A stretch of 63,912 nt of DNA, counting the filler, from Calcarisporiella thermophila CBS 279.70 (taxonomy: Eukaryota; Fungi; Calcarisporiellomycota), in NCBI RefSeq assembly GCF_041956535.1. It is 8 parts of 5 records of this genome, joined end to end, with 100 filler letters (N's around TTAATTAATTAA, not from the genome) between each part and the next. Parts side by side here need not be neighbours in the genome. Positions count along the whole stretch, not along the records: positions 23,401 to 46,989 come from NW_027192200.1; positions 47,090 to 51,038 come from NW_027192192.1; positions 51,139 to 57,879 come from NW_027192198.1; 5 more parts are not named here. One strand, given 5' to 3'. The position numbers were made by a program, and so were the translations under genes. Every line of letters begins with the position of its first letter. Positions within the stretch are counted from its first letter, which is position 1. Under the pieces are notes generated by a model, which had not been told where the DNA came from, searched no databases, and worked only from the letters and a program-made list of their open reading frames with translations. This document shows positions 16,113 to 57,879 of this stretch, piece by piece.

Positions 16113-16212
16113 NNNNNNNNNNNNNNNNNNNNNNNNNNNNNNNNNNNNNNNNNNNNTTAATTAATTAANNNNNNNNNNNNNNNNNNNNNNNNNNNNNNNN
16201 NNNNNNNNNNNN

Positions 16213-32485: not shown

Positions 32486-34105
32486 TGGATTTCTCGCCCG
32501 ATCCCCTCTCTTTTGTTTGAGGGGGGAGAAGGGAGAGAGAGAATATAATTTTACCTCGGTACAAAATATTTGATTGTATGTTCTCAATTTTTTTTAGTAT
32601 ACATTCATTCTTTTTATTCGTGCATTTTTTTTTACCATTAGTCTCGTCTTAGTATAGAAAACAAATATATATCATTGCATTTTACTCTTCATACTGGAAG
32701 TTTCTCGTGATAAACATCACCTCCCTGAGCAGCTCTAGAGTTTTTATTTTGAGTTATACATTCCGGGTTATTCGATGATTTGCTTTTTAATTTTACAAAC
32801 AAAACACAAATCCATAGCAAAACCGGAAAGCCAGAAAACTCAACCATTACCTTTCCAGAAGAGTACAAACCTGGATTCCACTGTGCCCCACGTCTTTATA
32901 GAAGTATGCTAGTTCCATTCGATTCGAAGTCTCTAAATTTGTACCGCCTATTGGCTATTGGGCCGGCCAGCTGAATCACCGGTAATTTACTCTGCCAAAT
33001 TGGAATACGCCTCCGATCATGGTAACTACAATTAATTAGTTTGTTCAAACTTCAATAAATGCATCAAGCTCATCACCACTGCCGTTGAATGCATTCCTAA
33101 ATGAATCGAAGTCCTCAATGTTGTGGCACGCTTCTCCGCCAAGCTGCCAGGAAGCTTGCAGGTGATTTATAGGACAAAGTGTTTACCAGGATCCGCTCCT
33201 GATCCCCCCCCGCGAGAAATCACAAACACAACATGATATCTGCGCGACTTTGAGCGTCCAAATGAAAGCATCAACCTGATTTGGAAGCATATCAGGACAG
33301 GCGCCTCTATTATTCAGATGATGCTCACAACCTCGACTAGCACAGAGAAAGCCTGACTCTGTGGTCGCTGTTGAGCGCTGTAGCTTTCACTTTTTAAGGT
33401 TTAGAGAGACTGTTTTCAATCTCTGTCTAAATGAGAATGAAAAGCTGCGAATGCTTCCTCGCCTTCAACACCTAGCTATCTGGCCAAGGCTACTTGTTTT
33501 CCGCAAAATGATGAAGAGACTACAAAAGCCAGGCAGAAGTTGTGTTCCATGGGAGATGATGACCGGTGTATGTTTGACGTTTCGTTTCATATGCTTGAAG
33601 TAACCGCTTACTTTCAATTTGTCCCTTCTTTCTATCTATAGCCGATTAATTGTGGAATTGACAGGAAGACACCCCAACATGAACACCACTGAATTGTTTT
33701 CGACTATTCTTAGGAAACAGATGAGCATATATTGTAGTGGTATTCTGATTATGAATTGTTGCGGGTTGAGCGAGAAGAAAAACTTAATGTAATTCGTTTT
33801 TGATGGACAAGTGTCATGGCCTCAATTACAACAACACACTCTGGCTCTTTGCTAAAGTTAACTTAGTCTAAGGTATATTTTTACCTTTCATTGAGTGATG
33901 GCTAACTGTGGTCCACTTGTGAATGGGATCTTAGAAAAAAATCCAGAGAGTATCCTTTGCCTACCAGTACTTTATACATCCTCTTTGTAGTTGACATATA
34001 TATTGCACGTCTTCGCACTTTAAATCATGCAGAAATGAGTAGTATACTGCTAGCTATCGTGGTCATGTTGATTAATTTTAATGATTAGGTCTCGTAGCCA
34101 GGTCG

Positions 34106-34680
34106 TTTTTTTTTTTTTNNNNNNNNNNNNNNNNNNNNNNNNNNNNNNNNNNNNNNNNNNNNNNNNNNNNNNNNNNNNNNNNNNNNNNNNNNNNNNNNNN
34201 NNNNNNNNNNNNNNNNNNNNNNNNNNNNNNNNNNNNNNNNNNNNNNNNNNNNNNNNNNNNNNNNNNNNNNNNNNNNNNNNNNNNNNNNNNNNNNNNNNNN
34301 NNNNNNNNNNNNNNNNNNNNNNNNNNNNNNNNNNNNNNNNNNNNNNNNNNNNNNNNNNNNNNNNNNNNNNNNNNNNNNNNNNNNNNNNNNNNNNNNNNNN
34401 NNNNNNNNNNNNNNNNNNNNNNNNNNNNNNNNNNNNNNNNNNNNNNNNNNNNNNNNNNNNNNNNNNNNNNNNNNNNNNNNNNNNNNNNNNNNNNNNNNNN
34501 NNNNNNNNNNNNNNNNNNNNNNNNNNNNNNNNNNNNNNNNNNNNNNNNNNNNNNNNNNNNNNNNNNNNNNNNNNNNNNNNNNNNNNNNNNNNNNNNNNNN
34601 NNNNNNNNNNNNNNNNNNNNNNNNNNNNNNNNNNNTTTCGATTATGGCACCTGAAGTGGACCACTGCACCACCTCTCCCC
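34106..34680 (-). mobile_element. tRNA-derived SINE (related subfamily); interior in N gap; 13-bp TSD
   Basis: TCTCGTAGCCAGG occurs at 34090-34102 and 34681-34693. Poly(T) at 34106-34118. Minus-strand head GGGGAGAGGTGGTGCAGTGGTCC..GGTGCC resembles the 48895 SINE head. Confidence 0.75.
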
Positions 34681-34766
34681 TCTCGTAGCCAGGCGTCAGC
34701 GCTAAAAATTCCACTTATGTGGCTATACAATTTTCCTTTTTTGAAAAACAAAATCAGTAAGGTTTG

Positions 34767-34838
34767 GCCGTTGTAGTATAATGGTTAGTACATCACGTTG
34801 TGGCCGTGATGATCCCGGTTCGATTCCGGGCAACGGCA
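34767..34838 (+). tRNA. tRNA-His(GTG)
   Basis: GCCGTTG/CAACGGC acceptor stem, anticodon arm TCACG-TTGTGGC-CGTGA, GGTTCGATTCC. Confidence 0.95.
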
Positions 34839-35189
34839 TCGGTTGAATTTTTAGTTTTTTAGACGGATTCTATTGAATTCCATGTTTTCTCGTGTTTTGT
34901 ATGGGAAATCTTTGGCAGCATTAATTTTGTTTTCCTTCTCTTTAATGCACCGAGAGTGTTTTGGGTGGAGGAATTATTTGTGTTTAACAGGAGAGTACCA
35001 AAAACCATTCAAATTACACCTGCTTAGATTCTATGGGAGTTGGTTCGTAGTAATCGTAGTAGCCGTAGTAATAGTAGTCATAAAAGAATACATGTAATAT
35101 TTTGCCCAACAAGGAAATAAAGAAGTCTATAAAATCAATTAGAATTAGGGGGGAGGGGAGGGGATGAGTGGAAAACCTTGGCGTTTCAA

Positions 35190-37584
35190 TTATTCATCGT
35201 GAATGTTAAACCACTTGACAAGGTCATTAATGTGCTCGATCGAGTATTGGCCTTTGAGGACCTTGCGAGCCTCAGGGACCTTGTTAAAGACGTTCCACAT
35301 CAACACGCCCACTACAATTCAGGAGGTAGAGGTTAATGGAATGCTCACGGAACCGTCACTGCATCACTTAAAAGAGCAACTTACCAATCTTGTTGTCCCG
35401 GAGATAGAAGACCACGCCCTTTCCATAGCTCTCATTGTTCACTGGCGCAGTGGATCCCTCCGATTGGAGGTTTTTGGCCGTTTCCTGCTTCTGTGTGGCG
35501 GTCTCATCCGCCTCGGACTCTTTCATGGATTTGGGGTCCATCGTGCGGATATTGTCGGGCTGCTGGGTCGCTTCCTTGGGAGTATCGTGTGAGCCAGCTT
35601 TGGCCCATACGCTTACCGTCTTCAGGCTTGAATCGACCACTCCCACCGCTTCGTATCCAATGTGGGGGCCAAGGTCGGACCAGAACATCGACTGGTGCTT
35701 ATAGGCCCTGCTAGGTCCAACCATATTCTCGCCGGCTGCGCGTCCTGAGAGGACAGCATGGTCGTGATGCTCCACGCGACGGCGGCCGAGAGCAATGTCG
35801 TGGTACGAAGTCATATCCCCTGCGCAGTACACATTGGTGCGTGCCTCAAGCTCCGCATTCACAATCACGCCACCGCGAGTTTCGTCGATTTCAAGACCTG
35901 CTTTACGCGCCAACTCGGTAGCCGGATCGATACCGACCGCGACGATCACGTGGTCCGCAACGATCTCTTCTCCACTCGAGAGCGAAAGCTGAACCTTACC
36001 ATCGTTGGTCAGCTGAGCGGACGAAATGGTGTTCTGTCGCTTGATCTGCACTCCCTCTAACGCAAACAAGTATATCAGTATGTATTCACGCTACTTGAGC
36101 GAGTTAATTGATATACATACCGTTCTCTACCTTCGAGGTCGTCCATTTGATCAGGTAGCGCGGGAACACCATGGCCATATTGCCATCTTCGGGGAAAATC
36201 TGAGTCACTGAACCGTTCTCCTTTTTCATACGATGAGCAAGGGCAACGGCTAGCTCGGAGCCCAAGAATCCTCCACCAATCACCACGACGTGCTTGCCGT
36301 CTTTAGCAATCTTGTCCACTCTACGGAAGTCATCCACGCTGCGGTAGGTAGTGACGAGTGAGGTGGCGCCTTCGGCCACATTTTCCAGGACGGGAAGGCT
36401 GAGCAGGCAAAAAGGAACATTTCAATGTGTATGAACGGTCAGTTAATCACAGCAGCCTCTGATTTACCTCTTGGGTGTTCCACCCGTGGCTAGTAGTACT
36501 TTTCCATATCGAATTGTCTTTCCATTGGCAAGTCGAAGGATTTGTCCCTCCACGTCCAAATCGGTCACTGCAACCCCCCTAAGCAATCTCACCTTCTTAC
36601 TCTCTGCTGATACCTCCAGGGTCTCGGGATTGACATGATCATATTCATCGTCCGTTTGGTAAAGGGCGTTTCGCTCCGTTCCATTCCAGTCCTTAAATTT
36701 CAGGGTCTGGGCCACGTCTGGGTCTTCTGAGAACCAGAATTCCTTGGAAAGAGGAGGTCGCATATATGGCGAAATCGACTCAGAACCGATAATTAGGATG
36801 TCGGCGTGGGGGTCCTTCTCACGGATGGCCTGCATGGCGCTGAAAGATGCCGTTCCACCTCCGACCAGAACATATTGGTAACGATCCTTGATAGCTAATT
36901 TCGCAGGAGGTTTAGAGTCGACCACAAGGGGCGTTGTATCGTTTGCCTCAGGAGCAGTTTCCACTTCACTCTCTTGTGCACTCGAATTCTCAGAATTCGT
37001 TACCTCTTTGGCCTCCTCTTCGGAGGGTTCGGGGATGGATGCGTTTTCGGTTATTTCCTCGTGCTTCTCTTCTTCCTTGGTCTCCTCCTTCTCCTCTGCA
37101 ATATCATCCGTTTGGGCTTGCTCATTATTGCTGTCAACAGAGGGGGAAACGGCAGACTCCCTGTTTTTAACGGATTCATCTGTCTTGACTATATTTGGCT
37201 CAGCGTGGGTGTGTTCGTCCACATGAGTCTTGGAAGCTTTGTAGGAGTCGGGCGGGGCGGTAAGTTTGTAAAACAATGGGATGGAAACGACCAGTGAACC
37301 GATCTTAGTAATGACATGATCCATGGTAAATCAAGAGTCATTATTAACACACTAGAATTATATGATAAATAAGACAGTTGCCAAATTACCAGCCAAATTT
37401 TGTCGCTACTAGGCTTTCCCTGTCCACTCGCTGATGCATATTGACGAACTGTGGAGGGGGTTTGAAGGGCGGAGGACCGGAAAAAGGGAGTGGGAGATGC
37501 AAGCCTGTGCGATCTGTACAGAGAATTTTGAAGGAAAGACGGTTTGCGAATACTTTTGTTAAGATGACCGATAGGCGCGCTCAT
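35190..37584 (-). CDS. AIF: Mitochondrial apoptosis-inducing factor (AIFM1-type FAD/NADH oxidoreductase), multi-exon
   Basis: Basic N-terminal presequence, VGGGTAS, PYMRPPLSKE, IGGGFLGSELA, RRRVEHHDHAVLSGR, HQSMFWSDLGP and YGKGVVFYLR. Confidence 0.92.
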
Positions 37585-37825
37585 GGTATATAATAAAAAG
37601 ATAAAGCAACAATGGAATTGAGCAATGGGCTATACAGTTCTCGGGGAAGTTTATGTAAGCAAAAAAAAAATCTGATTCCGAGTTCAGCGATTGCTGTGCC
37701 ACAATCGTTTGGCTCGCTTACACGTAGACGGAAACCTTTTCTTCGCATCTTCATCATCCTCCTTGTCCTAGGATTAGGAATCTTCATCGCTTCGGTTTCA
37801 AGCTATAAAAAATCACTCATCAACA
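37585..37825. promoter_or_regulatory. Compact (241-bp) divergent intergenic region, probably a bidirectional promoter for AIF and delta-COP
   Basis: The ATGs at 37584 (-) and 37826 (+) face away from each other. TATAAAA at ~37804. Confidence 0.5.
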
Positions 37826-40053
37826 ATGGTATGTATTACATGTATATGGATTATGAAGCTTCTCATGAAATTTTCGGCAATTCTTTGAAATCCGCCATCA
37901 TTAACTCTCTGCTGATTTCGATCAGGTGGTCCTCGCAGCGTCCATCGTCAATAAGCAAGGGAAAGGTTAATAAACCAAAATTTTTGTCCCATCTGCAACC
38001 AATTTGCCTACGATTACGCGTTCCTATGATGGCTAATGCTTGACCTGCTGTCTATTGTTTCTTAGTTGTGCTCTCGCGTCAATTCCGAGAGATGCCGCGG
38101 GCCCGAATCGAAGGTCTCCTTTCCTCTTTTCCAAAACTGACAAGCACTGGACAACAGCACACCACGGTGGAAACCGAGCATATTCGTTATGTGTATCAAC
38201 CCTTGGAAGAATTATTCCTCGTTTTAATCACTAATCGCCAGGTATTAAGGTCATTTCATGCCTGAGATTAGCATTATATATAATTTAAGTATTTTTTGCA
38301 TCTAGTCCAATATCTTGCAAGACATTGATTCACTCCACTTATTTGGCCGCGTCATCACAGACATGTGCAGGACTACTGACGAGCTAGAAATCTTACGCAA
38401 TGCATTCGAAATCATTTCCTCATTCGATGAGATCGTATCCCTCGGCTATCGGGAGAATGTGAACATAGCACAGGTGAAGACCATCACTGAAATGGAGAGC
38501 CACGAGGAGAAGATACAAGAGATAATTGCCAGAGTAAGCCAGTTGGTTGCGCTGAAAAAACCAGTTTTATTGAATCCATTCTATCCGATTCCCCGTCTAT
38601 AGAATAAGGAGCAGGAAGCCAAGGAGGAGCTCAAGCGTCGTATGAGGCAACTGGAGATGCAAAGGCGAGAGGCACAGAAGCGTGGCGCGCCATACATGGG
38701 CGGGGGATCCTCATTTGGTGGTGCCGGGTTCGGTCAACCCTCGCGCTCCATATCCCCTTTTGTCGAACAGTCGTACCAGCAGAACTACGAGTCTGAGCGC
38801 TCTACCTTCAACTCGTAAGATGCTTTCTCATATTTCACTTAACTTTTTGGTTTAACCCTTCAAAACATTAGTTCACCTGCCCCCGCCACCGCCTCCAAGG
38901 CCAAAGGCATGCAACTCGGCCGTAAAAATAAGACAAGCGATTTGCTTGAGGCCATGAAATCTGAAGTTGGGGCAATCGAAGAGGCGACAGCCAATTTATC
39001 ATTGAGCCCCTCTGCGGCTGCAGCCGGCACGGCTGGATCTCCTTCCCCGGCTATACCTACTGAAAAGTTAGTATCTTTCGTGGAGAGATAGTGAAATCAT
39101 TTCTTAACATTTACAATTCCCTCTTGTAGCATTCATGTCTCTCTCGAGGAAAAGATTTCGATGATTGCCAACCGCGATGGCGGCTTGGAAAGCATGGAGG
39201 TGAAGGGCGATTTGGTGCTCAAGATAGTGGACCCTGAGAGCGCGCGCATCAAGCTGGTCATTAGTACTTCGGATGATTCGGACGTGCAATTCAAAACACA
39301 CCCCAACGTGGACAGAAGAGCATTCACGGACGAACGCGTCATCAGACTAAGAGATGTCAATCGGTCTTTCCCTGTTAATCAGTCACTTCCCGTTCTAAGA
39401 TGGCGATTCATTACCAAGGACGAAACCATGGTTCCTCTTTCCAGTGAGTATATTTCAACTTGATTTGTTTCCCTAGATGGCTGGTGGGTAACCCCTCGCC
39501 CCCTCTCTTTACTCTATAGTCAACTGCTGGCCCTCTTCCTCAGGGGACGGCACCTGCAATGTCAATATTGAGTATGAGTTAGAGGCAGACCATATGGAGC
39601 TTACAGACGTTATCATTTCCATTCCAATACCGTATGTAGAAACTGTTTGATCCTTTAAAAGACTCTCTGTTTTAATATTATGTATTTTCTAGGCCCGGCG
39701 TTTCTCCCACAGTAAGCAATGTAGATGGCAACTACGAAGTGAACCGACAACAGCGCACTCTTGAGTGGCAGCTCCCGATCATTGACGCGTCCAACAAGTC
39801 GGGGAGTCTCGAATTCACCGTACCTGGTGATGATATTGGCGTGTTTTTCCCGGTGACCGTGAACTTTGTGAGCGAGAAGACATTCTGCAACATTGATGTA
39901 AGTTGGTGTTTTTGGGTGTTTTTTTTGTACAGTGGAGGCTTACTTGGCCGATCCCCTGAATAGGTGCTTGATGTCGAGAGCGTGGACTCGAACTCTTCGG
40001 CTCAATATTCAAAGGAGGTTGTGCTGAGGGCCGATGAGTATTGCGTGGTTTAA
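37826..40053 (+). CDS. RET2: Coatomer delta subunit (delta-COP), multi-exon
   Basis: ATG-only first exon, then [65 protein letters not shown] and INCWPS-like (VNCWPS). Confidence 0.95.
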
Positions 40054-41233
40054 CCGCTATAGAGGAACATACAAAAAAGAATTTTTTTCCCGGAGTCTGT
40101 ATCAAATTATGTCATTTTTTCTTTTAGCTTTGTCTCTTTCTTGGGTTGAATATATGCTATGCATCGTCTCCTCTTAAACTCTTTCTTTTTTTTTTGTTTC
40201 TCTCTCAAAACACGTCTCTCGTGGCCTACATGGCTGGCGTTTAACCGATGCACTTTTACGTTTAAATACGCAGCCATTGAACATCGAGCAAGAATGAATT
40301 TTGGAGCATAGGGAGGGATGGTGAAAGGAAGCAAACAGAAGTGATACCAGCAAGTCAGGAATAAATACACAACGTGTGCGAATTCAAGCTAAACACAATA
40401 AAAATTACGAAGCCGCTTGCTATGTAGAGTAATATCGGCATCTCTTATATTTACCTTATTACAATGAATCTTCTATGGGACTGCTCTCTCAAAGAAGTGA
40501 ACGAAATATCTCAGCTGTAAATATTTTTCGAATTACAGGTATGCTAATAACTGCCTTATCGAATATTACTTTGTGCGAAGTGCGAAGACGACTTTCTGCC
40601 CTGAACACACATTTAACTTTATCCAACGCAGTATATATTAACGGGTAGATCAACCCAGTCTGGAATGGCCGACCCACGAGTACACAAGTTCATTTTCAAA
40701 AGCTACTAAAAGAGTGAGAATGTATATCGACGTGCTGTACACTACGGCCTCGCCGAAGTAAGCAAGTCGCAATACAGTTTACGTGTTTGCGAGGAAAGTT
40801 AAAGTCTCCGGGGGAATCAATGAAAACTCCGAATCGCAAACGTGGAAAGCTAAATTCAATCTAAGTTTAAAAGAATCGATAAACTTAGTTTGAAGCATTC
40901 TGGATTCTAGATACAGGCTTACTAAGGAAATCTAATTTTGCTCAAGAGAGAGACATGAATAAAGGTAATAGTTTCTGTAAACTTCGTCATACGGAGGAGA
41001 ATTAAATTTAAATTAAACGCGAGAAGAGAGGAGAAACTTAGTTCTTGAGAGGGAATAATGGTATGAAATCTACTGGAAAACAACTATGGCCATCTTGTAT
41101 TTCCCCCGTATACATTATACCAAATCCATTTACCGTCCTTATCAATATATGCGAAAAAAAGTACAAGCGAGAACAGCGCGTTTATTTTACATCAAAGTCG
41201 TTCTGGGTTATTATTCTCAATCGGAATTCGAAG

Positions 41234-43728
41234 ATGATATTCGCTATGTCAGATGCAGAAGTAGTGCTCAATTGTGCTTCGATATTTTTCGCCCTAGTTA
41301 TGATGGTCATAGTTGTGTGGCAACGCATCCAAAATCCAAGAGCTACCAAAAACACCTCATTCGTGCTCAGTTTCTGGATCGGCCTAGCTGAAGTACTCTA
41401 CCGAGCGACCTATCTAATGTATATGGCATACGATTTCAACGATGCTATTCTTCCTTCCAATAATTGGCTCTGCCGACTTCTCTTATGGACTATTTATTTT
41501 TTCCCCATCTGGTTCTCGTTGCTCACTGTGAGCGTCTCTCTTGACCTCCAACTCTCTTTCATACACCGACTGAAAAAAATTGAACGCTATCAAGTGTGCT
41601 ACATTCCAGTCTCTACTGCGATAGCCTTTATTGTGACAACACCACAATTATTCCATGGAAAAGTTTGGTGGAGTACGGAATATGTAAGAGATTGATTTGG
41701 TTCCATAGCGTTTAAAGTGGATTCCCATCATTTTGCATAATTTTATAGAAATATATCAGCACAGACTGGTCATATCAAAGCGATCTAATCGTTGAAATCC
41801 TCAGAAGCATTATTTTCCTTGGCAGCATCTTATACTCTCTCGTTGTCATATTGATTGTTATTATTCGAGTTCTACACCAACTCCATGATTCGAATATGAA
41901 AAAGCATACTATCAGCAAGGAGTACCGCAATAAAGAACGAAGAATTATTACCTCAGTGCTACGAAATTTGGGTTACCCACTAGTTCCGTTATACGAATGC
42001 TTGGACACCCACTAGTTCTCATTATCTGCATGCCTGCTGATACAATACTTGCCATCCTATTTATTACACATAATCGTTTCACTCCTTTTGGTGATACTAC
42101 ACAAATGGCAAAAAATATTACTACTGGGATGCAGGGCATCCTCAGCTTTATTGTCTTTCTTTTTAACCCAACTTTCACAAATTCTTTCGTCAAGAGCACT
42201 CTCTTCAGAAAATGGGCTTCCTTTCAGTCGATGTCTCAAAGCATTTCACACGCATCCACCGTTCAAGATCAGAGAGCCACTCAGTCTCGCGCAGATCTGT
42301 GGATGTCTGCAGACAAGCTTATTCAACCACCAGAAGAAGTCTCAATTTATCCTCGTCGAAAGGTCCGATTTGCATTCAATACCAACGAAGTAATCCTTGA
42401 GAACAGTGGATCATCGAAAGAACAACCAGAAGCGATACCACTTGAGCAGATGGAGTCGCTGGCGTGTATACCTAAGCAATATGCTTGCGTGTTTGAAGAA
42501 GAGGATATGGCTGAACCACGGGTAGGGAGCAATGGAGATGTGTGGATGTTCGGAAGGAGGTTCTGTGGAGCTAAAGGTGGCTATTCATCCAGATTGGAGT
42601 ATCTTATAGCTATAAGCTAAGCCCTTATTGATGTAGGTGTACACTATATACTCCCAAATGACGAAGGGGAGGTGGATCGGTTGATTCTGCAGCACTATAT
42701 GTTTCGGTAAGCTGATGATTCTATTTTGACTGGGTTAAACTTAACATTGATCAGCTGTATAACCACCCACATGTTAGGTCGTTATTCAACAATTGCAATT
42801 TCCTCTCACCTGTCCGAAGTTAATTGCAAATTGGTGCAAAGGTGCTAGATGTTGGGTAGATAGTTCAGAACACTTATATTTTAGCTCATGGTGCTTAATG
42901 ATTACTTACTCGTGTTATAGATGTGGACCGGGCACTTGGACGATGGAGATGGCGACAGAGTTTCCGGGCAGCCATTTCTATGGAATCGATATCAATAAAG
43001 GGTTTCCTGAACATATCAAGCCTGAGAACTGCCATTTTCAGGTTGGCAACATCCTCGAACCTCTCCCGTTCGAAGACGAGGGCTTTGACTTTGTCTTCGT
43101 CAGGTGCGTTGGGCTTGGTGTGTATCAGAGCGAGTGGCCGAGAGTCATTGAGGAGATAGTGAGAGTACTTCGTCCGGGAGGATATTTCGAGGTAGTGGAA
43201 GCCGGTAAGCAAGTAGCTTGAAAACAGACTTAGTTTTGAAAGGAAAGATAGTAGATATAGCTGCTAATTGAATACGCAAAGATTATAACCTTTATGGAAG
43301 CGGGAGAGCATTTAGGAAGCTTGTCGAAAGATGTCAGTATAAGCGTGCTTTAAGCATTTCTTTTGGTCATATTGTGTGGCACTCACCTCTTTACACTAAC
43401 AATAGTACACAATACGCTTCGAGCACGTGATATTGACCCATCCTGGGCCTACGAGGTTCGCTCGTATTTTGATGAAATAGGGCTAGAAGACATCAAGAGA
43501 GTTACTCTGTCCTTACCAATTGGTCACACTATTGGGCAAATTGCAGGACCAGGCCGAGAATGGTTTATGCGGCTACTGGATTCACTGAGGCCACATCTGG
43601 TTCAAGTGATGTACATTAGTGTGAACGAATACTACGAACTTGCTCGAGAGATCGAGCAGGAACTGAAAGCAAAGGCCACTCAATTTAATTTTGTAAGTAC
43701 GTATGGATTAAAACAGATGCGAATCTAG
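41234..43728 (+). pseudogene. 7TM GPCR-like (Git3/cAMP-receptor-like) domain fused to a LaeA-like SAM methyltransferase; contains a frameshifting duplication and an in-frame TAA
   Basis: 7TM exons 41234-41683 and 41749-42576 run without a stop from TM6/7 into WMFGRRF. They splice (42577-42636) to YILPNDEGEVDRLILQHYMFR and then KVLDVGCGPGTW. Lesions: 32-nt duplication at ~41953-41984 and TAA at 42821. Confidence 0.75.
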
Positions 43729-44743
43729 TGAATGATTGAGGATTGTCGATTTTTGATAAACACCAATTTGGGATGTATACCAAGAGTAAAATTATTACAG
43801 TCGGGATAAAGAATGAATTCTACAGACCATAGACGTGTCGGCGGTTAGGAAATAGAATTGATCCAACTATAAGAGTCGCTTATTTTCGGGATAATCAGTG
43901 AAATCTTTTTTTGCACATTCCATTCACTCAAGTGAAGCATGGTATTCGGCAGAGTATATGATACTTGCTCCTTGTTCACAATTAATCTATCATCGACGGT
44001 AGCCAAGATTGATATTGGAAGAAAATCAGTAGAGCTTGTCACTGCTATTGATGTATGTGAAAATTTATTATGTGAATTGAAACTTAAATTATGAGAATGC
44101 AGTAAGTAAATAGCAAAGTATACACATTAGAAGAAAAAAAAGGGAGACCTTTCTGAACTAGTAAGATAAATGTGATGTCACTAAACACGAAAAGATTGGG
44201 CACTGACAGCAACGAACAGTTCTTTGAAATCGATCTCTGAATTCAAGTGTTCTACAGATGTGGCGGAACTTATTTACAAAGTAAAATTTAACATGTTCGA
44301 AATAATTTTTTATAAATATTGTTCGAAAGTCCGCTACGAGCAGAGTTCAGAAAATTATATATAATATTAAGTCTCTTGGTTAATGCAAACATTATAGCCT
44401 ATCCAAATACCGAATAGATTAGAAAACATGGTAACACAGTAACTTAGTATAATAGCACGAAAACTATATGAGGAAGTGATAAGTGGTAAAACTGAGGAAT
44501 TATAGTTTATTTAGTCATACACCTGGACAAAAATAATACCACTATGTGAAGAGTGACACCAGAACTTTGTACCTGGGTATAAAACTGAGGGTATAAATTT
44601 GAATGCCTTAGAAAAACGTACCTGATTTTTAAAGCTATTCACTAAGAACTGCTACTAAATTAAAGAAAGTCGCAAATATTATATCAGATTGACTATTTAT
44701 TGATTGGTGCTTACCTGCTAAAATTTTCACAATTTTAATCAAA

Positions 44744-45835
44744 ATGATATTCGAAATGTCAGTAGCAGAAATTCTGCTAAATTTTGCTTCCATTTTCTTT
44801 GCACTGCTTATGATGATTATTGTCATTCGATTACGTTTTGTTCGTCCAAGCGTCGCGGGCAATATATCCTTCACTTTGAGTTTTTGGATCGGATTAGCTG
44901 ATGCACTATTTCGGATAACATATCTGTTATTTATGGCTTATGACTTCAATGATACCATCCCTCCTTCCAGCGGGTATTTCCGATTTCTCCTTTGGACGAT
45001 ATACTTCTTTCCGATTTGGTTTTCGCTATTAACTGTGAGTATCGCGTTCGATCTTCAACTCTCATTTATTCAAGGGAAAATGATCATTAGACAATATCAA
45101 AAATGGTACCTCCCTGTTTCCACAATCGTGTCATTTGCTGCGACAACTCCACAACTCTTTTACGGAAATGTGTGGTGGAACTCGGAATATGTATGCAAAT
45201 ATTCTATTTCTTTATTTTTCTGTGTTGGCTGACATATTCATCTTATTTATTAACCTTAGGATTATATTAGCTCAGATTGGCCTTACGAGATTGATCTACT
45301 TAGCGAAGTTCTCCGCAGTGTAATCACTTTTGGCAGTATAATGTATTCCATTATCATCATTTGTATATCACTACACAAGGTTTTCGAGACAATTCGAAAG
45401 ATGGAAAAAGATCGAGTGAAAAAGTTTAATAATCGCAAATTAGAGCTCCAGGTGATTGTGTCAGTTATGAGAGTTCTCGGTTATCCCCTGGTCCTCATTA
45501 TATGCATGCCAGCTGAAACTATTCTTGGGATTCTTTTTGTCACACACAATCGATACACACCTTTTGGTGATGCCACACAAACTGCAAAAAATATTACCTC
45601 AGGAATGCAGGGCATCCTCAATTTTATCGTTTTTCTATTTAATCCTTCATTCACTCAATCTTTATCAGGCGTGCCTTTCTTCAAGGATATATGGCTCTTC
45701 CAAGAGCGTACTTGTCCTTACACTGGCATTGGAGCACTAGAACCACATGAAGAAAGCCGACAAATTGACACTCAGAATATTTCAGCAGTTCGCGAGGTCA
45801 ACACTTCAAGCAATCCTGAACAACGATCTAATTAG
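44744..45835 (+). CDS. 7TM GPCR-like protein (Git3/cAMP-receptor-like), about 340 aa, one intron (45191-45259)
   Basis: Seven hydrophobic segments, TM6 RVLGYPLVLIIC and TM7 QGILNFIVFLFNPSF. Paralogue of the 41.2-kb gene with the same intron position but no methyltransferase tail. Confidence 0.82.
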
Positions 45836-47879: not shown

Positions 47880-48894
47880 TTGTGATCTCTTGAAGGAATT
47901 TTTAGGGGAATGCTGTATTGTAATTATTTTATATTTCATTTGCATTGCTAATAAAAATGTTTTCCCATACATTCACTTAAACTGTAACAAGACCAAGCCA
48001 CCATCTCTCTATCCTGATTCAATATTTCCTTTTATATGCTCATTGGTTCCCACGCTGATTAAGGTTTATCTTGTTTACTATTTAAGCCTCGATCTCTGTT
48101 TATTATTCCTTGCCCATTATTTGCCCATTATTTGCCCATTCTTTGGCCCACCTTTGTCCATTTGTCCATTTTGCCCATTATTCTAATTGAATTAAGACCA
48201 CTTTTCATATATTCAATAAGAATCCGAATCATTAACAGTCTCAGAACTGTTACATAAACATAGGTATTATAATACATGTGATGTCCCCTGTAATGCTTCA
48301 TGTGACACTCCGTTACAATGTGTACGTAGCACTGTAGAGAGGAAAATGTGAACTTGGGTTACGAAAATAATGACAAGGTTTGTTCTAAGACAAAAGAATA
48401 TTTGAATAGAATAAAGTGAGGGAAAAAATATTGGTAGATTTAAACCTATTTTGGTAAAATTAGTCTCGTGTTTGTCTGCAGGCGTTTTGGGAACTGATGT
48501 TGTGCATATATTGAGAACTTTTTCCTCGTACTATCTATATAGTGTTCAGTCGATTTAGTCAAGTCCTTGCCAAGCCCTTGTGAGAAAGCATCACATTCGA
48601 CCAGTTTGATGTGAAAAATAAGATGAATCTTACACTTTCCGACATTTAAGTTCCGAGCATCGTTAACCTACTTTAAAATAGACAACACTCTATCCAAGCG
48701 ACATCCAACAAACAATAACAGGTCTAGTTTTTATTAGAAACCAACCTAAGATATAACCTTTCGAAATAATCTCCTTCACTTTCCCACTCTATCGCTTTTT
48801 ACAATCGATCCATCATGGCATATTTTAAAGTAATCTGTTAGGATATATTTTGTTTCTTATCTCGCTCTAGAAATTAATATAAATTACAGGAGAT

Positions 48895-49231
48895 GGGGGA
48901 GGGTTAGTGTGGTGGACTATCCCTGGTGTGCCGATGAGAACGGCGTGGGTTCGAATCCCACTTCCCCCACCAGCACTTACTCTTAGTTTGTGGCTGCTGT
49001 CCACTTGATCAGAAATTGAGTCTTCATTATTGAAAAGATCGCTCCTACGATAAGTACAAAGATTACATGGGTTTCACGTACATGCTATTCACGACAACTA
49101 CGATACACGCATATCGATTGCACGCCTATCGATCAAGGACCTATATCTCGTTATGTTAAGTCCATTGACATAAACTTCATGTAATATATGGAAATTAAAT
49201 AAACAGTTTTAATTGATTGATAAAAAAAAAA
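48895..49231 (+). mobile_element. tRNA-derived SINE, full length (family A, copy 1)
   Basis: Head with A-box-like TAGTGTGGTGG and B box GGTTCGAATCC ending in CCACCA, ~250-bp body, poly(A), and a perfect 15-bp TSD TAAATTACAGGAGAT (48880-48894 and 49232-49246). Confidence 0.92.
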
Positions 49232-50273
49232 TAAATTACAGGAGATAGTGAAAGAATTCCTCTGATCGAAGCATAATCATTGCGCGCCGCTTCATGAATA
49301 ATTTTTCACCATGTACGTAAAGTAATTACAGTATTATCGAGATCTTTTTGGAGAAAGACAGTATCCTGTATTTTATACATTGATGGTAGAGAATCTTGGC
49401 TCAAAAAATCCAATCTAACAATCTACTGTACATTTTATATACTGTTGTGCGCAGCACTAGAGCGGAGCACCAGGATAGAGAGTTTGTGCTGTAAGCAGAT
49501 GAATGCAGTGGTTGACGATGCATGATGAGCAGACTTAAGCCAAACATGAAGGTATTTGCCCAAGCTAAAATCAGGTTTCTGTCAGGCTCGGAAAGAATCG
49601 AGTCAAAGGCTGAACGCGCCGCGCAATTAGAGCCTTCTCCCCTGCAGATCCTGGCGAGATGTAGAAAGACCCCAAATCATTTGCTGATGTTCGCTTTCCT
49701 TGTAACTCCGCTCATCTTCATGAAAACTCGTGTCGAGAGGCCAATCAAAATGCCTGAGCAGCACAGGTTTTTTGAACTGAGTTGCATCCTCAAGGGTTCT
49801 CCAACCCTAAAAACCAAGATAGGGTCCACCGTTTTCCCATTTTGGCGCCGTAGCTCGAAGTCACGCCTGCGAGATCATTGCTCCGGCAAGACCCGACTCC
49901 AGCCCCTTCAACAAGACTTGGTCTGCGCTCCTTCACTGGCACTTTAGCTCCGCCATCAACTATGCGAAATCTTTTTTTCCTTCCGTGGAATTCCATGCTT
50001 GCTTCTTTGACTCCCAGATGCCCCCATATTCTCAGCTCGCGGCTCGAGGATGAGAACGGTGGCTAAGTTGCTTCTACGTTTCAATCTGTGTTAAAGCGAT
50101 CTTCAGGCCAATTGCAATATTATCAAATAATACTATGTGTCAGAATTTTAACTTGAACTTAATTTTTACAAGCATCCAATTATTACTTGTTTGTTTGTAA
50201 ATGATAAATCCTGTTTATTGTTTTTCTTATTGCTCTTTAAATAGTTCAGCTATTTGTCTTCTGATCCTTACTC

Positions 50274-51138: not shown

Positions 51139-51154
51139 ACACTAACCCTCCCCC
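51139..51154 (-). mobile_element. 5' tip of a family A SINE (remainder in gap)
   Basis: ACACTAACCCTCCCCC is the exact reverse complement of the first 16 nt of the SINE head, and lies at a contig edge. Confidence 0.75.
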
Positions 51155-51238
51155 TCAGCAAAAGCTAAGCCTCCATCCTCAACTACTGCGCAATTGATCC
51201 TTTTAGTTAAATTTCCTCACAACATCAACCAATTAGAA

Positions 51239-51310
51239 GGCTCAATGGTTTAGTGGTATAATTCTCCCTTAGGGTGGGAGAGGTCCTGGGTTCAATTCCC
51301 AGTTGAGCCC
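51239..51310 (+). tRNA. tRNA-Pro(AGG)
   Basis: GGCTCAA/TTGAGCC acceptor stem, CTCCC-TTAGGGT-GGGAG anticodon arm, TTTTT terminator. Confidence 0.95.
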
Positions 51311-52119: not shown

Positions 52120-52191
52120 GGGCTCAACTGGGAATTGAACCCAGGACCTCTCCCACCCTAAGGGAGAATTATACCACTAAACCATTGAGCC
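52120..52191 (-). tRNA. tRNA-Pro(AGG)
   Basis: Reverse complement is identical to 51239-51310. Confidence 0.95.
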
Positions 52192-52277
52192 CTCTGATTG
52201 GTTGAACTGTTATATGGAAGATTGGGAAGTGTTGAGATAATGTACGTATCCCGCTTATCCGATTACTATCTTAAGCC

Positions 52278-52407
52278 TTTTTTTCATCATTGGGGATGGT
52301 CACTATGAGAATTTTTCAGACAGGAATGTCTCCAGGGCCGAGAGAAAGACGACCCCAGAAACACCCCCTACGGCCGAGAAGTTCACTAAAAACCCCCGGA
52401 TTAAGCC
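52278..52407 (-). mobile_element. 130-bp poly(A)-tailed retro-insert with TTAAGCC duplication
   Basis: TTAAGCC at 52271-52277 and 52401-52407. T7 run at 52278. GC-richer interior than the flanks. Confidence 0.6.
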
Positions 52408-52728
52408 GGGGGAGGGTTAGTGTAGTGGACTATCCCTGGGATGCCGATGAGAACGGCGTGGGTTCGAATCCCACTTCCCCCACCAGCACTTACTCTTAGT
52501 TTGTGACTGCTGTCCACTTGATCAGAAATTGAGTCCATTATTGAAAGGATCCCTCCTACGATAAGTACAAAGAATACATTGGTTTCACGTACATGCTATT
52601 CACGACAACTACGATACACGCATATCGATTGAACGCCTATCGACCAAGGACCTATATCTCGTTATGTTAAGTCCATTGACATTAACTTCATGTAATATAT
52701 GGAAATTAAATAAAAGTTTCCATTGATT
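52408..52728 (+). mobile_element. tRNA-derived SINE (family A, copy 2); 3' end in gap
   Basis: Near-identical to 48895-49231 along its whole length. Confidence 0.92.
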
Positions 52729-53456
52729 NNNNNNNNNNNNNNNNNNNNNNNNNNNNNNNNNNNNNNNNNNNNNNNNNNNNNNNNNNNNNNNNNNNNNNNN
52801 NNNNNNNNNNNNNNNNNNNNNNNNNNNNNNNNNNNNNNNNNNNNNNNNNNNNNNNNNNNNNNNNNNNNNNNNNNNNNNNNNNNNNNNNNNNNNNNNNNNN
52901 NNNNNNNNNNNNNNNNNNNNNNNNNNNNNNNNNNNNNNNNNNNNNNNNNNNNNNNNNNNNNNNNNNNNNNNNNNNNNNNNNNNNNNNNNNNNNNNNNNNN
53001 NNNNNNNNNNNNNNNNNNNNNNNNNNNNNNNNNNNNNNNNNNNNNNNNNNNNNNNNNNNNNNNNNNNNNNNNNNNNNNNNNNNNNNNNNNNNNNNNNNNN
53101 AAAAAAAAGAGGCAGGATGGTGTAGTTGTTACGTAGAATATAAGATAGTATAAAGAATAAGGATAAGCTATTCGCAATCTCAGAAGTTTATCAATATTTC
53201 TCTGTAATGTAATTCAACTCTTAATTTAGTTAGTTTCAGCTATAGTTAGAAACACTATATAAGTCATAATGTTCCTTTTGTAATAAGAAAAAAAAGACAG
53301 GATTCAAGTTATTTATTTTTCTATATTTTTGGTCTACTTTCTACTATCTTAAGTGCGTGTTCTGCATCAGGGACTGCAGAAGACTTAAGATAGTAATCGG
53401 ATTAGCGGGATACGTACATTATCTCAACACCTCTCAATCTCCCACTCAACATAGTC

Positions 53457-53719
53457 GCCGTTCTTGGAGCACAATGGTTAAGAGCCCCGGAGCTTAACAA
53501 TTGTGTGCTGGGTTCGATTCCCGGTGACGGCACCAGTACTAGAGATGTGTCCAGGACATACTCTAGGAATCGAGCAATAACCTACTTCGTTAATAATTTG
53601 ATATTAGTAGTCATCAGTAAACAAGCAATACATGTAAGCAATGGTAGAGGGAGTGTACAACCCTTTTGTTTAACTTTTATAGGAGACTTTTCAATAAAAG
53701 TTCCTTTAATGAAAAAAAA
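53457..53719 (+). mobile_element. Second putative tRNA-derived SINE (family B) or retroposed tRNA pseudogene
   Basis: GCCGTTC...TGGTTAA...CTGGGTTCGATTCCCGG-TGACGGCACCA head (encoded CCA, broken anticodon arm), ~180-bp body, AATAAA, then A8. No clear TSD. Confidence 0.55.
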
Positions 53720-53735
53720 GCGGGATGGTGTAGTC

Positions 53736-53817
53736 GGGGGTGGTGTAGTTTAGTGGTAAGCGCTCCTTGGTGCCCTCGAAATGGCGTGGGTTAGAATCCC
53801 GTAACCTCCACCAGCAC
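53736..53817 (+). mobile_element. Diverged SINE head related to family A
   Basis: GGGGGTGGTGTAGTTTAGTGG...TGCC..GGCGTGGGTTAGAATCCC...CCACCAGCAC. Same layout and same CCACCAGCAC junction as family A, followed by a different body. Confidence 0.65.
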
Positions 53818-54244
53818 AAAAATAAAGTGACTGGATTCTCCATTAAATCTGTGCATTGCTTGTAGTGTCTATGTTCTCTATCAGTATATCTGTCTTTTCC
53901 AGTCTGGTTTTCTACAATTACTCGCTTTCACTCTCCGTCCTGTCGTGTCTGGCTCTTCCTCTAGTATTGCTTGTGTCTTGTCGTACCTGATCTTTCTATA
54001 GTTACTGACTCTCATTACTGCCCTTCGCTTGCCGTACCTGTCATGTGTGGTTATCTCTACTTACAAAAGGTATTGCTACACAATCAAGCAGAGCCACTGA
54101 CGAAACGGAGGGTCAAAACTCAAATTTTGAGCACAGTACTGTAGAAAGTGATATCCAGGAAGAAGACTCCATCGTGTCTGATGAAGGTAGCATACCAACT
54201 TCAATTAATATCAATGGCATATGAATTTTAGTCTTTTCGCTTAT

Positions 54245-54480
54245 CTATTTTTGCCGAAGCTGATTTATGGCCGGACATTCCAGGTAAGCATGAATAATGG
54301 TTTCCACTGCGTTGGTCGTGCACTGCTTGCAAATATTAGGTTCTCCTGCCCATTTACTAGTGGTGATGTCTGTCACCAATCTGTGTTTCAAGAGTCTCCA
54401 TCTTAGCGCCCTATGCTTGGGTTCACTCGGCTGCTTTTTCCAGTTCATCCAAGCTATCTCCCAACTGATGAGAACCTCCA
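54245..54480 (-). mobile_element. Non-LTR retrotransposon (L1/Tx1-like) ORF2 fragment, zf-RVT region
   Basis: PKHRALRWRLLKHRL...CKQC....ETIIHAYLECP (CxxC...H...C knuckle). Paralogue of 57.6-57.8 kb. Confidence 0.8.
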
Positions 54481-54825
54481 CAAAGCTAATTTGTTTGAGA
54501 CTACTCTTGATAAATATATGAACTAATATTTCCATTCTAATAACAAATCTGATATGTATCGTGGTGGATATAATCAATGAGGGATCAAAAAACGGAATTG
54601 AAGCTATCTAATCGATCGTCAAGTACCGATTGCTATCTTCATTATGCATCTGCTTATCTTTATCATGCATCAGCTGCCTTTTCGTTATTTTTATGCGACG
54701 ATCCTCTTTATGCAACCAGCATATATCCATTCAAATATCTTTTATGGAAACCTCTTTTTTTTTGCTATATAAGAACAAAGTACAGAAGAATAAAGAAAAA
54801 AACGAAGTTTTTGGTAATCTCTAGC

Positions 54826-55400
54826 TTTTTTTTTTATCAAAGGTGAGTCTTTATTGTTTAAGAAGACTCTAAAGTACAATCGTTACATTATTAAAAGTAA
54901 TAAAATGAGAGAAGAGCTAGATATTAACGCGGTATTGCAATTCGGGGTAATTTGGTCGTAATGAATTTTCTCCTCAGATGGGTAGATGAGAAATAAAACT
55001 CAGCTAACTGTGGGTATTAGGGAACGGCTTGATAGGTGATATGGAGAGAGAGATATGGAGAAAGAGAAGGGCTAGTAGTAGGGGCTACTGCGTCAATCCA
55101 GTTCTAGAGCCGCTCTGTTAGCTCCTACTTTCACCGCGCCCATTTTACGCCACCTGCTTCGGAACTATTCAATTTGTCGCTTTATTCAGGCTCTTGTTAG
55201 TTCGGCTTCTATAGCCTCCTCAATATCCAGCTTGGCCCGATTGATGATGGTTTCGGATGAGGCTCGAGTACTTTCAAAATGAAAGGCGATTCGGTCCCGA
55301 TGGATTTGCCATAACACCTAATCGAAGACGATTTGAGCCGCGTGTCTTACTGTCCTCGGGGCTTCTGGTAGGTCGCCAAGTACGAGATTCCTGGGGATAA
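54826..55400 (-). mobile_element. 5'-truncated LINE 3' end (ORF2 C-terminus, 3' UTR and poly(A))
   Basis: Minus-strand frame with stops reads VLWQIHRDRIAFHFE...FRSRW, similar to the L1 LW.IW..RN...F motif. Ends in TTGATA10. Confidence 0.65.
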
Positions 55401-55407
55401 AGTTATG

Positions 55408-55910
55408 TTTTTTTTTTGGGATTTATGGATCTTTATTGAAAAGTATCCTTTTAAGTTAATATAGTGACTTGTCAGAAGAAATACATGTAAGTAGTGATTG
55501 AGCGTATGAATACCATCCTACTTTTCAAGGATGGTATTATACAAGAGAGAAAGGAATATAAACAAACAAAAAAAAAGGAAAAATTGGAATGCGGGTGGTA
55601 GGGTATTTGGCAAGGTCGTATTGGAGCTAAGTGTTTTGGTTGAAGGATATTTCGTCTCTCTGGACTTGTATCTAACTTCCCTTACACCAAAGCTCTTGGA
55701 AATCATCTTTCTTATCCTTTATGGACGCTGACCACCATTTGGATCTCACGATATTTTGCATTTCGTGACCTAGTTGTTCAGCGAGCGCTATTTCGCTTGG
55801 TTGGGATAAAAATAAATCTCTTATTTTTATCAAGATCCGGACACCCCTCCACACAAACTTCCTTTCGCCTGTAACACCTGTTACGAGGATTTTGGGGTTT
55901 ACCGTGAAGA
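55408..55910 (-). mobile_element. Another probable 5'-truncated LINE 3' end
   Basis: Poly(T) at 55408 with AATAAA just upstream on the minus strand. ORF piece ...LIKIRDLFL...KDDFQELW resembles an ORF2 C-terminus. Confidence 0.4.
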
Positions 55911-56220
55911 TTTGTACGTAAAGAAACAAATGAAAGATTTTCTTATAAAAAAAGAAAAATAAGATAATAAATTTCAAGACTAATACTCCATGAAAATAAA
56001 CTAATCCGCTCCTCGTTCACTCACGCTTGAATCTCTTCTTATATAATAAAATTAGACTAAATAGAACGAACTGATTAAACAAACTGGTTAATCGAACTGA
56101 ATAAGCAAACTGGTTAAACAACTAATTTAACAAAACAGAACAAACTTGAATAAAATTATCAAAGCGCTAGTAATTTGCCGAAAGGTTACTAAAGTAACAT
56201 AAAATTAATTGTGCATAAAG

Positions 56221-56557
56221 TTTTTTTTTTGATCAATTAATGGAAACTTTTATTTAATTTCCATATATTACATGAAGTTAATGTCAATGGACTTAACATA
56301 ACGAGATATAGGTCCCTGATCTATAGACGTTCAATCGATATGCGTGTATCGTAGTTGTCGTGAATAGCATGTACGTGAAACCAATGTATTCTTTGTACTT
56401 ATCGTAAGGGCGATCTTTTCAATAATCAAGACTCAGCTTCTGATCAAGTGGACAGTAGTCACAAACTAAGAGTAAGTGCTGGTGGGGGAAGTGGGATTCG
56501 AACCCACGCCGTTCTCACCGGCATCCCAGGGATAGTCCACTACACTAACCCTCCCCC
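56221..56557 (-). mobile_element. tRNA-derived SINE, full length (family A, copy 3)
   Basis: Reverse complement of the family A sequence with poly(T) at 56221-56230. TSD GCATAAAG(T)n at 56213 and 56558. Confidence 0.92.
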
Positions 56558-56644
56558 GCATAAAGTTTTTTTTTTGACTTGTGGCGCAGTTATGACTGTC
56601 TATACCAAATACCAACATTCCAGTAACACACAAACCAATGAGGG

Positions 56645-56716
56645 GGCTCAATGGTTTAGTGGTATAATTCTCCCTTAGGGTGGGAGAGGTCCTGGGTTCA
56701 ATTCCCAGTTGAGCCC
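56645..56716 (+). tRNA. tRNA-Pro(AGG)
   Basis: Identical to the other two tRNA-Pro copies. Confidence 0.95.
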
Positions 56717-57034
56717 ATATTTTAATTTTGGTACCCAAGGATATTGAACATTGTGTTTTGATATATATTTTTTTGCTTTGTTAGTATTAAAGCGTTCAAA
56801 GTTGTTTTCAATTGTTGGTGAAGAAATATTGTAAATTTTCAAGTCGAATATTGCAAAAATTACAACATGGTATTGATAATGAATATCATAGAATCGGCAA
56901 TAAGGTCATTAGTTTAAAATAAGCATAAGCTAGCATACTATTGAATTAATATTAATAGTAATAACTAATTAGAGAAAAGAATTTAGATAACAAGAACAAT
57001 CAAAAAAAAATCTACATTTGCAAAAATAAGAATG

Positions 57035-57107
57035 CGCCCAACGTGGGGGTCGAACCCACAACCTTGAGATTAAGAGTCTCACGCTCTACCGATTGAGCTA
57101 GCCGGGC
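57035..57107 (-). tRNA. tRNA-Lys(CTT)
   Basis: GCCCGGC-TA-GCTCAATCGGTAGAGC-G-TGAGA-CTCTTAA-TCTCA...GTGGGTTCGACCCCCAC-GTTGGGCG. Confidence 0.95.
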
Positions 57108-57142
57108 TCCATTTGTTTATTACGAGATAATTGATTTTTGTA

Positions 57143-57879
57143 CGGGGAAGTCTCAGAGGCAGTCACATGGACATTCAGAAAGCGCGATACCAGTGAAAGG
57201 GAAGGTAGAAAAATTCGGGATAGTGAAATTGGAAGATTTCTTCAAACCGCACAGAGACAATATCTACCAACCGATGATCGAACCCGAGGTACACGCCCTA
57301 GTCGCAAGGAACCCTGACAGATACTCGAGGGAATTCAGAGAACATTATCTCGATCTTCACCTACTATGGAGGAGAAAGCTGCTCCACCTAGATGAACGAC
57401 TCGCCGAGACTCTCACATAGCGAATCCCCCTTGTTGGTAACAAACACAACTTTCCTTTAACAAAATGTTCTATTGCAGGGATTGAGACCACCGCTTACAC
57501 CACCAAAGCTGGGAGACTATACAAGCAGGATGCGCCAACCATAACCACCGAGGAATGGAAGGACGTTTCCAATGACGTTGACAGATGGACGAAGGCATGG
57601 GCCAGGTGGAAAAGTCGTCCGTCAAAACCCAAGCACAGAACCCTTCGCTGGAGACTTATGAAGCATAAAATAGTTACCGGAATCATCACTAGCAAATGGA
57701 CTGGAGATCCTAACACTTGCAAAAGATGTTCCCTAGGGATACCTGAAACAATTGCCAATGCCTTTCTAGACTGCCCAGCTATCGCGCAACTCTGGCAAAG
57801 AGTTGATGAGACAAACTGCCGAATAATTGGAATACCGCCACACGAATCCACGAGAGAAGACAGACTGTTTGGACAAGAC
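57143..57879 (+). mobile_element. 5'-truncated L1/Tx1-like LINE ORF2 fragment (zf-RVT); runs into gap
   Basis: One frame with a single stop (57418): GIVKLEDF...KPKHRTLRWRLMKHKI...CKRCSLGIPETIANAFLDCP. Confidence 0.82.

Follow-up and report, generated by a model that had tools for sequence, protein, structure and literature searches.

tRNA genes and the SINEs upstream of them

The DNA analyzed here (the window) is a stretch of 63,912 nucleotides (nt) from the genome of the fungus Calcarisporiella thermophila CBS 279.70, in which short and long interspersed nuclear elements (SINEs and LINEs) lie at nearly equal distances upstream of tRNA genes. All of the DNA evidence comes from this single window, which has nine assembly gaps and of which ∼62.4 kb was read. 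Window-wide searches with ARAGORN and Rfam identified six tRNA genes (Table 1). Counting the spacer in nucleotides from the SINE 5′ end to the start of the mature tRNA, a SINE begins 86 nt upstream of tRNA-His (spacer 34681-34766, SINE at 34680), 84 nt upstream of the tRNA-Pro gene at 51239 (51155-51238, SINE at 51154), and 87 nt upstream of the tRNA-Pro gene at 56645 (56558-56644, SINE at 56557). This means that three of the six genes have a SINE 5′ end at 84 to 87 nt. At a fourth, the tRNA-Pro gene starting at 52191, the spacer is 216 nt (52192-52407, SINE at 52408), and it becomes 86 nt when a 130-bp insert is subtracted, the second of its flanking TTAAGCC copies being at 52401-52407; the insertion junction is thus at 86 nt with the SINE immediately behind it. 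At all four sites the SINE and the tRNA gene are head-to-head. A fifth gene, tRNA-Lys, has the 5′ end of a LINE ∼82 nt upstream. The initial annotation of this DNA had given the same four distances, including the correction from 216 to 86 nt, and the same orientation; the former were exact on remeasurement and the latter was seen at every site. Its claim that more than one isotype (His and Pro) is targeted also holds and now extends to Lys. The remaining gene, tRNA-Ser, has no recognizable insertion in its 101 nt of visible upstream DNA, where the contig ends. The contig likewise ends 100 nt upstream of the tRNA-Pro gene at 51239, and a gap that close is found at 1.6% of positions. The possibility that tRNA-Ser hides an insertion at about −85 was weighed and rejected: nothing recognizable was found in that place, and a faint similarity to the Lys region was not significant.

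The SINEs belong to two families, A and B, rather than to the single set proposed initially (three are family A and one is family B). Family A is 327 nt long plus an A tail, with AATAAA before the tail, and has four copies in the window; the three longer copies are 93.6 to 96.0% identical in pairwise comparison. It has a tRNA-like head with A and B boxes, is short and noncoding, carries poly(A) and a target site duplication (TSD), occurs as dispersed near-identical copies, and gave no protein match. On these sequence features it is classified as a tRNA-derived SINE (SINE2). Transcription by RNA polymerase III (Pol III) is predicted from the boxes, and internal T4 runs are absent in two of three copies and near the end in the other. 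The heads of the three copies (48895-48972, 52408-52485, and 56480-56557) and of a related candidate (53736-53813, head C) have a tRNA-like acceptor stem with an encoded CCA, and the CCA-ended heads give weak Rfam tmRNA matches far under the gathering score. This suggests that the heads derive from mature tRNA; the 3′ half of the family A head is presumably Leu-like. The element at 34680 was placed in family B because its head is unlike that of family A and its estimated body is longer. The SINE annotated at 51154 does have its head at that place, but only its first 16 nt are visible; they match the start of family A without a difference (E = 9e-4).

Three TSDs are visible: 13 nt (16 nt with one indel) for family B (34090-34102 and 34681-34693), 20 nt for the family A copy at 56222 to 56557 (56213-56232 and 56558-56577), and 16 nt for the copy at 48895 (48879-48894 and 49231-49246). 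They are unrelated to each other in sequence. Those of the SINEs at 51154 and 52408 are out of view, the 3′ ends of these copies falling in gaps. The less certain elements (family B, the candidate SINE at 53457-53719, and head C) are each single in the window. The candidate carries both the A and the B box and ends in poly(A), with no TSD found; for head C, neither the 3′ end nor a TSD was found when looked for. The 130-bp insert, the head C body, and the segment 55806-56212 gave no match among the 105 proteins compared, and an exact 33-nt pattern of the SINE A head had no match in metagenome contigs or in viral contigs. A 12-mer that resembles a SINE head start, GGATGGTGTAGT, occurs at 53115 and 53723, after two different poly(A) tails.

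Table 1. Positions of tRNA genes, retroposons, and associated sequences in the window
Feature	Position	Strand	Basis or remarks
tRNA-Ser(GCT)	7163..7244	+	ARAGORN/Rfam
SINE family B copy	34106..34680	-	A box, 45 nt of head, 517-N gap, poly(A), TSD
tRNA-His(GTG), target	34767..34838	+	ARAGORN/Rfam
SINE family A, complete	48895..49231	+	A and B boxes, CCA-ended head, AATAAA, TSD
SINE family A, first 16 nt at contig end	51139..51154	-	Identical to family A start
tRNA-Pro(AGG), target	51239..51310	+	ARAGORN/Rfam
tRNA-Pro(AGG), target of + strand stack	52120..52191	-	ARAGORN/Rfam
65-bp stretch of Pro 52191 spacer	52215..52279	.	92% inverted copy of 53380-53444
130-bp insert, TTAAGCC-flanked, at -86	52278..52407	-	Ends in A7 on - strand
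SINE family A copy, tail in gap	52408..52728	+	Sequence comparison
A+T-rich piece, poly(A)-ended, A-box-like start, uncertain retroposon	53109..53295	+	
Candidate SINE, tRNA-His-like head, CCA, poly(A)	53457..53719	+	
Candidate SINE head C, kin to family A head	53736..53813	+	
L1-like LINE family 2 fragment (zf-RVT)	54248..54469	-	
5′-truncated L1-like LINE family 3: ORF2 C terminus, 3′ UTR, poly(A)	54826..55395	-	
5′-truncated L1-like LINE family 2: last 59 ORF2 codons, 3′ UTR, poly(A)	55408..55806	-	
SINE family A copy	56222..56557	-	A tail overlaps TSD
tRNA-Pro(AGG), target of - strand stack	56645..56716	+	ARAGORN/Rfam
tRNA-Lys(CTT), target	57035..57107	-	ARAGORN/Rfam
5′-truncated L1-like LINE family 1 ORF2 fragment, one in-frame stop, 3′ part in contig gap	57190..57879	+	
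ORF, open reading frame; UTR, untranslated region.

The insertions appear to have arisen separately. Anchored on the tRNA, the four spacers are 27 to 41% identical in the six pairs, and 20 to 31% without the proximal 25 nt. Young SINE copies, 94 to 96% alike, therefore stand beside diverged spacers, which argues for independent insertions and rules out duplication of a SINE-spacer-tRNA block; together with the unrelated TSDs, this agrees with the initial annotation, which had argued against segmental copies. Its statement that the spacers are unrelated apart from a short motif at the Pro genes is mostly right, but a weak likeness between the first two (with the tRNA-Pro genes numbered Pro1 to Pro3 along the window) persists after trimming (Pro1/Pro2, P = 0.005 against shuffles and 0.037 trimmed), and His/Pro3 is borderline (P = 0.049). 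The agreement in distance is hard to obtain by chance, as judged by analytic estimates from few sites. First, if insertion were uniform, finding three of seven SINE-like heads 300 nt or less upstream and inside one 4-nt band would have P ∼ 4e-8. Second, with insertion confined to the 300 nt upstream, the distances of 84, 86, and 87 nt have P = 4e-4, orientation ignored, and P = 5e-5 with orientation. Third, when Lys is added and Pro 52191 is scored as a miss among five, the value in that zone is P = 1e-4. The feature upstream of the tRNA genes is real and statistically solid within the window, and a genome-wide plot is needed to establish it; we hold targeting to a fixed distance and orientation near tRNA genes to be very probable.

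The spacer of Pro 52191 needs a separate description. The initial annotation had recognized its insert, and removal of the insert does give 86 nt, but the insert is oriented opposite to the rule. Nor is the spacer unique: 65 bp of it recur inverted at 53380-53444 (92% identity). A 12-nt part of this repeat (at 52264) has a direct copy at 53342, which pairs with the right arm as a small hairpin. If this 12-mer pair is a TSD, the insertion point would be at −84. The inverted repeat was considered as a miniature inverted-repeat transposable element and rejected, there being no flanking duplication.

LINE fragments and their arrangement

A six-frame profile search found four LINE pieces in the 62.4 kb, belonging to three families that are 25 to 54% identical. 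They are L1-like in the order of a reverse transcriptase (RT) and a C-terminal zf-RVT domain. P0099, a longer family 1 member with 93% identity to the piece in the window, combines RVT_1 and zf-RVT, and in the PDB it is most similar to human L1 ORF2p (E = 2e-12) and R2 (5e-10). Distant relatives of these LINEs (∼30% identity) carry Exo_endo_phos. The piece upstream of tRNA-Lys is a plus-strand ORF2 fragment with zf-RVT, facing a minus-strand gene that starts at 57107; its segment 57274-57879 is 97% identical to a C. thermophila database protein. P0099 and another longer member, P0105, align with it from the Pro codon at 57190 and no earlier, which gives a spacer of 81 to 82 nt. The profile alignment begins at 57181.

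Some trends in the arrangement of the pieces were clear. First, all four LINE pieces are head-to-head with a tRNA gene and <2.2 kb from its start, and such zones make up 11% of strand positions, a comparison in which the zone size was picked post hoc and the stacked pieces are not independent. The rest of the intergenic DNA in the 62 kb has no LINE piece and one SINE. Second, the family 2 piece at 55408 to 55806 directly adjoins the family 3 piece. Third, between the divergent tRNA-Pro genes there is one strand switch, from plus (52408-53813) to minus (54248-56557), which is the pattern expected if two stacks grow away from each Pro gene. Finally, 11 of the 13 retroposon-like pieces obey the orientation rule. 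The C. thermophila database gene models P0009, P0012, and P0018 fuse different LINE families or regions on one strand, which hints that LINE stacks exist elsewhere in the genome.

The partner of the SINEs had been proposed to be an L1- or Tx1-like LINE. The L1-like part of this proposal stands, with L1-like ORF2 fragments present and one of them ∼82 nt from tRNA-Lys, but the Tx1-like option does not: a sequence-specific LINE of the Tx1 type was rejected because the junctions and TSDs at His, the three Pro genes, Lys, and the SINE at 48895 have no consensus. A shared 3′ tail is the usual hallmark of SINE-LINE pairs (PMC3747384). The tail of the candidate SINE at 53457-53719 equals that of LINE family 2 in 33 of 41 columns; none of 5,000 shuffles matched this, and the pair is one among 21 compared. 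In metagenomes, the loci of distant L1-like RTs (22 to 34% identity; the best 80 of 498 confirmed, 346 kb) contained no tRNA gene with default ARAGORN and five long-intron tRNA calls at a lowered threshold; these loci are remote and mostly on short contigs, and they carry little weight either way.

Host genes in the window encode MFS transporters, a HAMP-repeat histidine kinase, a kinase, and proteins with AIF and TPX2 domains. The histidine kinase (13089-16164) is of the hybrid type, with 276-nt HAMP repeats and HisKA, HATPase, and receiver domains. A duplicated pair of membrane-protein genes lies at 41042-45835 (66 to 77% DNA identity), and duplicated methyltransferase gene pieces lie at 16214-16919 and 42778-43728. 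An ORF at 18060-19067 has three Cys/Thr/Pro-rich repeats of ∼70 residues each and belongs to no Pfam family. Three long ORFs lie at 4064-6247, possibly a decayed mobile element; two were checked against Pfam and neither matched. Degenerate repeats at 240-1369 and 58160-60934 are 64 to 68% identical, and the ORF at 58160 contains words that we take to recall a CACTA-type transposase, with no Pfam hit. An adjacent ORF pair at 62036-63630 has a P-loop-like motif and is presumably reminiscent of Crinkler-type NTPases, again with no hit in Pfam.

Proposed mechanism and alternatives

We propose, with somewhat better than even confidence, that tRNA-headed SINEs and 5′-truncated L1-like LINEs inserted independently and head-to-head at tRNA genes of three isotypes, ∼82 to 87 nt upstream, through a LINE protein held by Pol III factors. 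Seen directly are the distances, the orientation, the poly(A) tails, the TSDs, the lack of a junction consensus, and older elements on the same strand behind the newest one. From a dock on the Pol III initiation complex, the LINE protein would make its cuts at a constant spacing, and insertion would proceed by target-primed reverse transcription. The first nick may fall ∼67 to 73 nt upstream, at the near end of the 13- to 20-nt duplications at the two tRNA sites where a TSD is visible, and the second cut at 84 to 87 nt. Each new insertion would push the earlier ones away from the tRNA gene and so build the stacks. By using LINE proteins in trans, SINE RNAs would inherit the address. If targeting is accepted, a tether to Pol III factors is its probable basis, and by analogy with the retrotransposon TRE5-A the docking partner may be TFIIIB or TFIIIC.

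Several observations weigh against this proposal. The SINE at 48895 has a clean TSD yet no tRNA at the expected place; as annotated initially, it has no neighboring tRNA, and the scan of its surroundings found no other Rfam family and only a poor B-box-like word (48761-48766). The T run of the 130-bp insert faces the tRNA gene, so that, read as a poly(A) element, the insert is reversed, and the LINE piece at 54248-54469 runs in the direction of Pro 52191, the closer tRNA gene. The 65-bp repeat of the Pro 52191 spacer also precedes the His-like SINE head at 53457. Of the five sites, three belong to one cluster of tRNA-Pro genes inside 5.5 kb, and all come from a single window. The Lys junction drops to 70 nt (57178) if a 3-nt insertion is allowed, a kind of match that arises at 837 of 62,392 window positions (1.3%), and it extends up to ∼92 nt with microhomology (a likeness to the Ser upstream region with P of about 0.01 to 0.06). 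The SINE A tail has nothing in common with the tails of LINE families 2 and 3 beyond AATAAA. A search for the full-length ORF2, endonuclease, and ORF1 of these families found none of them, only three weak distant hits. Lastly, the ORF1 protein (ORF1p) of TRE5-A has a preference for the RNA that encodes it, and TRE5-A elements lacking ORF1 reach 0.5% of the mobility of the control (PMC3159450). Efficient SINE targeting along this path is hard to square with that figure, given that SINEs lack ORF1.

The alternative that survives best is passive targeting, in which the LINE endonuclease cuts the accessible edge of the first upstream nucleosome with no Pol III factor bound. In yeast, the nucleosomes upstream of tRNA genes are ordered and receive Ty1 insertions (PMC5911963). 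The distance of 84 to 87 nt lies farther out than the 47 ± 3 of TRE5-A, and since no ORF1 contact would be required, both the targeting of SINEs and the reversed insert would be covered. However, a 4-nt band with such a strong bias to one orientation is hard to reach by accessibility, and there is no second band one nucleosome outward, in a sample that is tiny. On balance we consider this explanation unlikely.

Less likely again is that the window merely includes one retroelement-rich tRNA cluster, where local duplication, a loose preference for the vicinity of tRNA genes, and chance give matching distances. The three identical tRNA-Pro genes share 15 to 25 nt upstream, the 65-bp spacer piece is duplicated 1.1 kb off, and in this gapped assembly the two cases past the three clean ones need interpreting. 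tRNA-His speaks against this account, being 16 kb distant, of another isotype, and next to another SINE family at an equal distance. So do the differing spacers and TSDs and the estimate for the 300-nt zone given above, which holds even when orientation is ignored.

A third explanation, which we doubt slightly more, is that either the LINE protein or some DNA-binding factor of the host recognizes a conserved word near −44, with the cut 43 to 45 nt beyond. An upstream motif of 37 to 49 nt is common to Ser (7097-7146), Pro 56645 (56594-56630), and Lys (57119-57166), and the likeness has P = 0.001 for each of Ser/Lys and Ser/Pro3, of 15 pairs. The word YRTACMA lies at −44, −43, −44, and −37 at Ser, His, Pro 56645, and Lys, respectively, and is 43, 43, and 45 nt from the junction at His, Pro, and Lys. 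On the other hand, YRTACMA is missing from two genes targeted at an equal distance (Pro 51239 and Pro 52191), nor does it precede the SINE at 48895, and there are 15 occurrences of the core word in the window. The longer motif is probably a Pol III promoter element. YRTACMA may be no more than the promoter element that seats TFIIIB, in which case this explanation would merge with the Pol III tether. A partial copy of the motif is present at 55887 on the minus strand with no tRNA behind it. Random insertion followed by selection that spares only copies at the right distance and orientation is the least probable of all, for although the window is gene-dense, many insertions would be purged, and other sites are evidently usable (the SINE at 48895), a 4-nt band is not expected from it, and the other intergenic DNA is nearly free of such elements.

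Comparison with known systems

The closest likeness of the proposed Pol III-tethered system is to TRE5-A of Dictyostelium discoideum. Its 5′ end faces the tRNA gene, 80% of its insertions fall within 47 ± 3 bp, copies are arranged in tandem, and its ORF1p has TFIIIB subunits as binding partners (PMC5391098, PMC5911963); it also mobilizes nonautonomous copies in trans (PMC5391098, PMC3159450). As in TRE5, the elements in the window have their 5′ end facing the tRNA 5′ end, occur in tandem, and use several isotypes (His, Pro, and Lys). Unlike TRE5, they lie at 82 to 87 nt rather than 47 to 50 bp, and the host is a fungus. Moreover, TRE5-A.2 is a deleted LINE that keeps ORF1, whereas the passengers here are Pol III-type, tRNA-headed SINEs without ORF1, and at least three LINE families take part in the stacks. 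Because the TRE5 distance is not found, we do not class these elements as TRE5; the likeness described is one of geometry. Targeting of non-LTR (long terminal repeat) elements upstream of tRNA genes evolved apart from TRE5 in Polysphondylium NLTR-B and Dictyostelium purpureum NLTR-A, which insert 39 to 64 bp and 2 to 6 bp upstream, respectively, and in which RNase H replaces the zinc finger; the accessible text of that paper gives dictyostelids as the only hosts of tRNA-targeting non-LTR cases and does not mention SINEs (PMC5006619).

In fungi, Ty1, Ty3, Candida Tca8/beta, and Yarrowia Tyl3, Tyl6, and Ylt1 insert upstream of tRNA genes via Pol III factors (PMC5911963, PMC7175516). Unlike the elements in the window, they are LTR elements with integrases, the Ty3 types inserting within <∼30 bp and Ty1 into nucleosomal DNA to ∼1 kb. 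The fungal L1 element Zorro3 targets poly(A) tracts (PMC5911963, PMC7175516). A SINE that inherits the target of a LINE is known from crocodilian SINEU-3, which uses Tx1-clade LINEs and has 313 of 347 copies beside Mariner-N4_AMi (PMC4494074). There the target is a sequence read by the endonuclease, whereas here the constant is the distance to the gene and the junctions share no sequence. A full-text literature search, with most subscription journals outside it, found in the accessible text no fungal LINE, and no SINE of any host, with a constant spacing to the tRNA genes behind which it would lie upstream; non-LTR elements with position-specific tRNA-gene targeting were described there for social amoebae only. 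This agrees with the initial remark that no described fungal SINE was known to behave in such a way.

What is new here is a tRNA-targeted non-LTR system that differs from the known ones in its distance and host lineage and in carrying SINEs as passengers. A LINE able to place short foreign RNAs at one set intergenic point also has a bearing on tools for gene insertion. The SINE passengers make it testable whether the address comes from ORF1p attached to the RNA that encodes it, the TRE5-A mode, or from a factor serving any RNA. Set against the 47 bp of TRE5-A, the fungal ruler of 85 is a natural comparison for how a LINE gauges its distance from a Pol III gene.

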